A stretch of 33,145 bases of DNA, taken from positions 1 through 33,145 of IMG/VR virus record IMGVR_UViG_2534681702_000003. One strand, written 5' to 3'. How positions within the stretch are numbered: the first letter of the stretch is position 1; the number at the start of each line of letters is the position of its first letter. A model generated the notes under the pieces. The model did no database searches, was not told where the DNA came from, and saw only the letters and a program-made list of their open reading frames with translations. The position numbers and the translations under genes are program-made. Below are positions 19,440-20,158 of this stretch, piece by piece. The DNA comes from a virus. Taxonomy: Duplodnaviria > Heunggongvirae > Uroviricota > Caudoviricetes.

Positions 19440-19620
19440 GGCCTGCCACGGGGCGGAAGGCGCGCGGGTTTTCGCTATTTATGAAAATTTTCCGGGGAAA
19501 ATCATGTCGGTACTTCTCGAACATAACTATTTGTTTTTTCTAATATCGAATCCGTAAAAGGTCCGACATGAAAACGCCTAAAAAAGTCATTTTCGGGCAC
19601 TTTCATGTCGGACCCTGTGC
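19440..19620. other. cos site (cosN about 19451-19462; cosB-like repeats downstream)
   Basis: CGGGTCCTTCCGGTG...GGGCGGAAGGCG-CGCGGGTTTTCGCTATTTATGAAAATTTTCCGG matches recalled lambda genome ends; three copies of TCATGTCGG(A/T)C at 19504, 19558 (inverted), 19603. Confidence 0.7.
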
Positions 19621-19638
19621 TTGTTGTGAGACTGTTTC

Positions 19639-20158
19639 ATGAAGGTTAATAAAAAGAAACTTGCCGAAATTTTCAACGTGGATCCGCGAACGATTGAACG
19701 CTGGCAGTCTCAGGGACTCCCTTGCGTCTCCGGAGGTGGTAAGGGCGTTGAATCTGTATTTGATACCTCCATGGCAATTCAGTGGTATGCGCAGAGGGAG
19801 GCTGATATCGAAAATGAAAAACTCCGTAAAGAGGTTGAGGATTACAGGGCTGCCAGTGAGGCAGATCTCCAGCCTGGGACTATTGAGTACGAACGCCATC
19901 GACTTACGCGTGCGCAGGCCGACGCACAGGAGCTGAAGAATGCCAGAGACTCCGCAGAAGTGGTGGAAACCGCATTCTGTACTTTCGTGCTGTCACGGAT
20001 CGCAGGTGAAATTGCCAGTATTCTTGACGGGATCCCTCTCTCGGTACAGCGGCGTTTTCCGGAACTGGAAAACCGACATGTTGATTTCCTGAAACGGGAT
20101 ATCATCAAAGCCATGAACAAAGCAGCCGCGCTGGATGAACTGATACCGGGGTTGCTGA

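Follow-up and report, generated by a model that had tools for sequence, protein, structure and literature searches.

We consider it very probable that the prophage locus described here carries a cosB/TerS N-terminus module of the phage 21 type in lambda-type DNA, and that the variant cohesive-end overhang beside it is a separate cosN allele. Because the 21-type module is joined to a lambda-type TerS C-terminus and a lambda-type TerL, the locus would combine the packaging specificity of phage 21 with enzymatic machinery of the lambda type. The module consists of cosB (R3, a probable I1, R2 and R1) and the winged-helix domain at the N-terminus of TerS (Nu1), the small subunit of terminase, whereas its lambda-type surroundings are bp 13-45, the core and C-terminus of TerS, and TerL (gpA). 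In the proposed working of the locus, the chimeric TerS would bind the 21-type boxes R3, R2 and R1 while IHF bends the DNA at I1, the lambda-type C-terminus of TerS would position the lambda-type TerL over cosN, and TerL would introduce nicks 12 bp apart, leaving the 5' overhang GGGCGGAAGGCG. The right half of this overhang, AAGGCG, is probably a recurrent natural allele, located where TerL tolerates changes in cosN. Sequence identities, breakpoints, the determinant residues and bases, and the population distribution come directly from the sequences, whereas for DNA binding, the nick positions and packaging specificity we rely on homology and published genetics.

Architecture of the cos region

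The window, by which we mean the whole stretch of 33,145 nucleotides that was analyzed, was read directly from 19380 to 19700 and aligned with the lambda DE3 prophage copy, phage 21 (M81255), 4A7, IdasGreatGrand, PhiR46_1, and phiSTEC1575. The region appears to be a complete cos site (cosQ, cosN, and cosB) with the start of the terminase operon, in a lambda-like prophage of enterotoxigenic E. coli (ETEC) whose insertion adjoins potC. From left to right, cosQ is followed by the spacer, ACG at the top-strand nick, the 12-bp cohesive-end segment, CGCGGGTTTTCGCTATTTATGAAAATTTTCCGG, the three R boxes, Nu1, and gpA (Table 1). Both terminase genes scored above the curated Pfam cut-offs, Nu1 with Phage_Nu1 (300.8 bits, E = 2.6e-90) and gpA with GpA_ATPase (172.7 bits) and GpA_nuclease (250.4 bits). 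Structures of the winged-helix DNA-binding domain have been solved, with 1J9I and others among the PDB matches.

Table 1. Features of the cos region and the terminase genes, in coordinates of the window
Feature	Position	Strand	Basis
cosQ heptamer GGGTCCT, packaging-termination element	19422-19428	+	sequence; present in all comparators
cosQ-cosN spacer TCCGGTGGGGTGGCCTGCC	19429-19447	+	alignments; lambda and 21 have 1 bp more
cosN nicking site, CG-flanked on both sides	19449-19464	.	nick positions predicted by homology
Predicted 12-nt 5' overhang GGGCGGAAGGCG	19451-19462		homology
cosN-proximal stretch CGCGGGTTTTCGCTATTTATGAAAATTTTCCGG, equal to lambda bp 13-45	19463-19495	+	33-bp identical run
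Position of IHF site I2, bp 30-44	inside 19463-19495		transferred from the annotation of the phage 21 record M81255
R3 box of cosB, 21-type, AATCATGTCGGTACTT, bp 50-65	19500-19515	+	alignment; 21 R3 annotation; core TCATGTCGG at 19502-19510 (+)
Probable IHF site I1, between R3 and R2	19522-19536	.	position transferred from M81255 through alignment
R2 box of cosB, 21-type, inverted	19558-19573	-	core TCATGTCGG at 19563-19571 (-)
R1 box of cosB, 21-type	19601-19616	+	core TCATGTCGG at 19603-19611 (+)
Nu1/TerS, whole gene	19639-20184	+	intact
Nu1/TerS codons 1-68, winged helix-turn-helix DNA-binding domain, 21-type	19639-19842	+	alignment; PDB matches to TerS DNA-binding domains
Nu1/TerS codons 69-181, core and TerL-binding C-terminus, lambda-type (98%)	19843-20184	+	
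gpA/TerL, 641 aa, intact, lambda-type	20159-22084	+	95-100% nucleotide identity to lambda

A 21-type block between lambda-type flanks

When identity to lambda and 21 was compared in 60-bp sliding windows, a block of ~345 bp stood out from 19496 to ~19840, covering cosB and Nu1 residues 1 to ~68, with 83-97% identity to 21 and 50-60% to lambda. Within cosB, the DNA identity to 21 drops to 64-77% between the R boxes. From ~19845 onward through gpA, the sequence is 95-100% identical to lambda and about 65% to phage 21, placing the recombination junction at ~19830-19860, about codons 65-72 of Nu1. The protein comparison gave the same picture, as Nu1 residues 1-68 share 87% identity with 21 gp1 and 59% with lambda Nu1, whereas residues 73-181 are 98% identical to lambda and 49% to phage 21. 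Since Nu1 is 21-like up to residue 68 and lambda-like from residue 73, the junction falls at the end of the winged-helix domain.

Lambda (J02459; DE3 copy EU078592) shares cosQ, the left half of cosN, bp 13-45, TerS residues 73-181, and TerL with the window at 95-100%, but has its own R boxes (CGTTTCC...), a TerS domain with Q20/E24, and an overhang whose right half differs at five of six bases. Phage 21 (M81255, X02501, OL657228) has the R-box core TC[A/G]TGTCGG, the layout, and the TerS recognition helix in common with the window; it differs in the rest of gp1 and in gp2, both of its own 21 type with about 50% and 65% identity to their counterparts in the window, in its canonical cosN, and at four positions in bp 13-45. 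A sequence-only reading of this DNA had described the N-terminus of Nu1 as 21-like with the remainder and gpA lambda-like, which agrees with the identities given above. It had further proposed a natural packaging-specificity hybrid, a proposal to which the discrete 21-like block with lambda-like DNA on both sides lends support. The alignment to the cos and Nu1 sequences of lambda and 21 revealed neither ordinary lambda R sites nor a Nu1 of lambda type throughout.

The window might be regarded, on its sequence, as the natural counterpart of a laboratory hybrid, lambda-21 hy51, constructed in the Feiss laboratory. This hybrid has the cosB of 21 and a small-subunit gene composed of the 5' half of gene 1 and the 3' half of Nu1, and is a viable, 21-specific helper (PMC4669245). 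The window has the corresponding arrangement, namely a TerS with a 21-type 5' part and a lambda-type 3' part next to a lambda-type TerL. However, hy51 was made by a lambda x 21 cross and has the canonical cosN, whereas the 21-like block of the window starts at bp 46, is 83-97% identical to 21, and lies beside a variant cosN. The locus is mainly of use as a clean natural example of cosB and the TerS DNA-binding domain being swapped as a single cassette, with junctions coinciding with the domain boundaries placed by genetics.

The TerL-binding C-terminal part of TerS and the N-terminus of TerL are both lambda-type, and TerS and TerL therefore match each other. A patch of gpA at residues 8-21 (20180-20222), overlapping the 3' end of Nu1, differs from lambda (VNRLRHFVRAGLRS) as well as from 21, and is common to IdasGreatGrand; it falls in the N-terminal region contacting TerS.

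R boxes and packaging specificity

cosB contains three copies of TCATGTCGG, of which the middle one is inverted. The sequence-only reading had reported three repeats with one in inverted orientation; three copies were indeed found, but the first one, read as an 11-mer, is TCATGTCGGTA and does not follow the form ...GG(A/T)C. With at most one mismatch, the 11-mer of that reading occurs four times in the 33-kb window, and cosB accounts for three of these occurrences, compared with a mean of 0.9 matches after shuffling (0/100 shuffles reached four). The same reading was right that the repeats take the place of lambda R sites, because the lambda R box (CGTTTCC...) is absent and the repeats are phage 21 R boxes. 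Counted from the left end, R3 occupies bp 52-60, R2 bp 113-121 (-), and R1 bp 153-161, whereas R3, R2, and R1 start at bp 52, 112, and 152 in phage 21; the start codons of Nu1 in the window and of gene 1 in 21 are both located at bp 189. M81255 annotates R3, I1, R2, and R1 in phage 21; the R boxes of the window follow this layout, and a candidate I1, TAACTATTTGTTT, lies at the annotated I1 position of 21 and agrees by eye with the reverse complement of the consensus WATCAANNNNTTR at eight of nine specified positions. R2 and R1 with their flanks (19560-19614) form a 25-nt imperfect inverted repeat with 84% complementarity and 5 nt between the arms.

According to Feiss et al. 2015 (PMC4669245), packaging specificity depends on the recognition helix of TerS, above all residues 20 and 24, and on R3, above all bp 56 and 59; the same paper describes a clash between Glu24 of lambda TerS and the G:C pair that 21 has at R3 bp 56. 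All four of these determinants are 21-type in the window: bp 56 and bp 59 of R3 are both G as in 21, where lambda has T and C, and the TerS recognition helix, RTIERWQS, shows no difference from 21, having E20 and S24 in place of lambda Q20 and E24. The features of lambda packaging specificity, a lambda R box and a lambda TerS recognition helix, are both absent. The packaging specificity is accordingly predicted from the sequence to be 21-type. Phage 21 specificity would entail a more than 1000-fold preference for 21-type over lambda-type DNA in packaging.

Two points count against a full match with 21, namely A instead of G at bp 54 of R3 and GGGKG instead of KGSKG in the wing. Since the block is only 83-97% identical to 21, in addition to the A at bp 54 and the lambda-like wing, the fine specificity could differ from that of 21. 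That the cosB/TerS module would represent a third packaging specificity, neither 21 nor lambda, is in our view unlikely, even though TerS departs from 21 at 10 of its first 70 residues (wing residues G32 and G34 among them), the R3 core is TCATGTCGG where 21 has TCGTGTCGG, and the identity to 21 falls to 64-77% between the R boxes. The recognition helix is that of 21, and bp 56 and 59 as well as residues 20 and 24, the published determinants (PMC4669245), are all 21-type. Moreover, R2 and R1 of phage 21 itself already read TCATGTCGG, so the A at bp 54 falls within the R-box repertoire of 21.

The wing loop, Nu1 residues 31-39 (19729-19755), reads SGGGKGVES, with a GGGKG core as in lambda, versus SKGSKGIES in 21. 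This makes the loop a small mosaic patch in a DNA-binding domain that is 21-like elsewhere.

Distribution of the chimera

In all, 371 complete E. coli genomes match the 281-bp cos region along 80% or more of its length, and it is identical or nearly so in ETEC strains such as E24377A, H10407, ATCC 43896, and 504838. The isolated phage IdasGreatGrand (PP925829) shares the chimeric cosB, Nu1, and gpA with 98.8% nucleotide identity from 19463 on, but its overhang is the canonical GGGCGGCGACCT and its cosQ-cosN spacer is lambda-like. Like hy51, this phage supports the viability of the architecture. The sequence-only reading overstated the rarity of the hybrid, which hundreds of genomes share with a deposited phage. 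In a sample from IMG/VR, 15 TerS sequences had a 21 N-terminus with a lambda C-terminus, nine were 21 throughout, and 97 were lambda throughout, in addition to other combinations; this sample over-represents variant cosN because one of the two scans behind it selected for variant cosN. A paper on mosaicism (PMC9836094) had no content on terminase or cos. Both the chimera and the variant end are widespread in sequenced genomes, and from these distributions they appear to be products of the ordinary modular exchange of lambdoid phages. No new mechanism is opened by the finding.

cosQ, spacer and the variant cohesive end

The cosQ heptamer is kept not only in the comparators but also in nearly all IMG/VR cos sites tabulated. 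Because the spacer is 1 bp shorter, cosQ starts 29 nt before the top-strand nick, compared with 30 nt in lambda. The spacer sequence is strongly diverged from both lambda and 21, and it recurs in IMG/VR with all three right-half alleles described below, AAGGCG, CAGCGG, and CGACCT. A second 29-nt spacer family is present in IMG/VR. That the cosQ-cosN spacing of the window falls 1 bp short of the distance in lambda and 21 is a point against the preferred explanation of the locus.

The overhang segment reads GGGCGGAAGGCG, whereas lambda (DE3 copy), 21, 4A7, IdasGreatGrand, and phiSTEC1575 all have GGGCGGCGACCT. The change is confined to the right half, where AAGGCG replaces the canonical CGACCT with differences at positions 7, 8, 9, 10, and 12. 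cosN reads CG/GGGC....../CG at 19449-19464 (slashes indicate the nicks), retaining the first 4 bp and the 2 bp flanking each nick. The bases known to matter are intact, namely GGGC, CG on both flanks, G2, and C11. Where PMC9303873 and PMC9026076 cite Vahanian 2017, the conserved positions of cosN are given as the first 4 bp and 2 flanking bp per side. N15 cosN differs from lambda at positions 9 and 12, and no cosN specificity was seen (PMC4669245); the window allele has five differences compared with these two. Other natural cosN variants have been recorded, for example GGGCGGCGCGCT in mEp213 and LLS (PMC12315714).

Direct reading and alignment confirmed two further statements of the sequence-only reading, that the overhang region differs from lambda and that the 33 bp to the right of the nick are lambda-identical. 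Its statement that the left side corresponds to the right end of lambda holds for cosQ and for ACG at the nick, but not for the diverged and shorter spacer. None of the phage records starts at GGGCGGAAGGCG, and none with determined termini carries the AAGGCG allele. Vahanian et al. 2017 (Virology 509:140), reportedly a survey of natural cosN variation, lay outside the literature search in which the exact 12-mer GGGCGGAAGGCG had an unrelated plant paper as its sole match.

Occurrence of the AAGGCG allele

We counted the alleles in complete E. coli genomes with a 37-mer forcing the variant and the canonical 37-mer. AAGGCG was found in 155 of 5426 genomes (166 places) and the canonical end in 4101 genomes (7413 places); the variant thus accounts for ~2% of the sites. 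If GGGCGGCGACCT is taken for granted, as in prophage or virome tools or in work with cosmids and in vitro packaging, about 2% of the E. coli lambda-like cos sites will be missed. Among IMG/VR contigs, 81 contain ACGGGGCGGAAGGCGCGCGG with the exact AAGGCG; most of them have a lambda-type cosB, ~19 have a 21-type cosB, and a few carry a third cosB and TerS type, with many and varied cosQ-cosN spacers. The variant overhang is therefore an independent and recurrent cosN allele that is not tied to the chimera, contrary to the sequence-only reading, which had coupled the odd overhang with the chimeric cos; the allele occurs across three cosB types. The right half of cosN drifts or recombines on its own.

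Only two phage records contain AAGGCG, YDC107_1 and PhiR46_1 (PV340565; host ECOR13). These phages and the 46-kb circular replicon pEC21Z151-46K share the cosN allele ACGGGGCGGAAGGCGCGCGG with the window, but differ from it in having cosB and TerS of the lambda type throughout and a lambda-like spacer. The 3-kb cos region of PhiR46_1 is 100% identical to that of pEC21Z151-46K. A literature search for a paper describing PhiR46_1 found none, and the evidence that it is an infectious phage consists of the GenBank record, with ECOR13 as host, and the identity of its cos region to the 46-kb replicon. In PLSDB, AAGGCG is carried by 23 non-mobilizable circular records of about 34-92 kb, many of them about 46 kb (e.g. 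NZ_CP101200.1). In view of the 100% identity of one of them to PhiR46_1 over 3 kb, the plasmid records with AAGGCG resemble phage-plasmids of the lambda-like kind, or circular phage DNA that ended up in assemblies. Among complete E. coli genomes, AAGGCG is over-represented on replicons called plasmids, with 16/166 places versus 19/7413 for the canonical end.

A third right-half allele, CAGCGG (GGGCGGCAGCGG), was observed in three IMG/VR contigs, all with the spacer of the window; two of the three have a 21-type cosB and one could not be classified. CAGCGG with a lambda-type right flank was not found in complete E. coli genomes. The only single-base variant of the canonical end in the sample was CGACCG, in one IMG/VR contig, and no intermediates between CGACCT, AAGGCG, and CAGCGG, three alleles that are unlike one another at most positions, were seen in it. 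A co-adapted TerL nuclease was considered and rejected, since no gpA position separates 37 AAGGCG loci from 32 CGACCT loci with lambda-like gpA.

One might speculate that the right-half alleles are non-neutral and represent cohesive-end compatibility groups kept by selection, an idea we regard as improbable. AAGGCG and CGACCT ends would mismatch at 5 of 12 bases. If the idea were true, such groups could block end-joining or cross-termination with co-resident lambda-like prophages, or allow escape from cos-bearing satellites, and the ETEC lineage would be doubly isolated in packaging by 21-type initiation and a private sticky end.

The generic pattern CGGGGCGGN6CGCGGNTTTTC gave at least 120 matches in genome contigs, including many GC-rich genomes. 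Among the 120 matches listed, seven had terminase similarity, and all seven were from Escherichia or Shigella. Nearly all matches in GC-rich taxa are due to chance and lie within coding sequence, and several of them are found in coding sequence resembling the glycine-rich motif of short-chain dehydrogenases. Generic cosN patterns are hence unsafe for finding cos sites outside enterics.

State of the prophage and the meaning of the variant end

E. coli strain 504838 has a near-identical prophage that contains about 12.6 kb more, comprising the head and tail genes C (S49 peptidase) through J. This stretch is missing from the window, where the deletion junction lies near 24791 (region about 23731-25831), whereas cos, Nu1, A, W, and B are intact. 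As genes C to J are missing, the prophage is defective and would produce no virions on its own. Among its relatives, ATCC 43896 has an IS66 in gpA, E24377A has a deletion after Nu1, and cro is annotated as frameshifted in close relatives. The missing genes, the IS66 and the deletion after Nu1 count against the preferred explanation, in that this particular copy may not be functional.

Such lesions, in the window itself and in the gpA, Nu1 and cro regions of its relatives, could suggest that the overhang has decayed, i.e. that cosN mutated in a dead prophage where it is no longer cut, leaving the variant without biological meaning. We find this very unlikely, because the exact hexamer recurs in the 81 IMG/VR contigs and 155 E. 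coli genomes with varied spacers, three cosB types, and three TerS types, because it is present in the phage PhiR46_1 and the 23 circular replicons, and because GGGC, the CG on each flank, G2, and C11 are all intact. Displaced nicking, with a true cohesive end other than the 12-mer at 19451-19462, is extremely unlikely: position 12, at the bottom-strand nick, has changed from T to G, and the twofold symmetry is lost at pairs 6/7 and 3/10, but the conserved flanks ACG/GGGC and /CGCGGG are the usual length apart, cosN is as far from R3 as in lambda and 21, a distance that sets the nick position (PMC9026076), and N15, which also differs at position 12, is cut normally by lambda TerL (PMC4669245).

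Elsewhere in the window, two phage-borne tRNA genes (16528-16603 and 16701-16777) are located upstream of the lysis cassette; one has the anticodon CAT (Met by ARAGORN, Ile in RefSeq) and the other is a tRNA-Arg (TCT).
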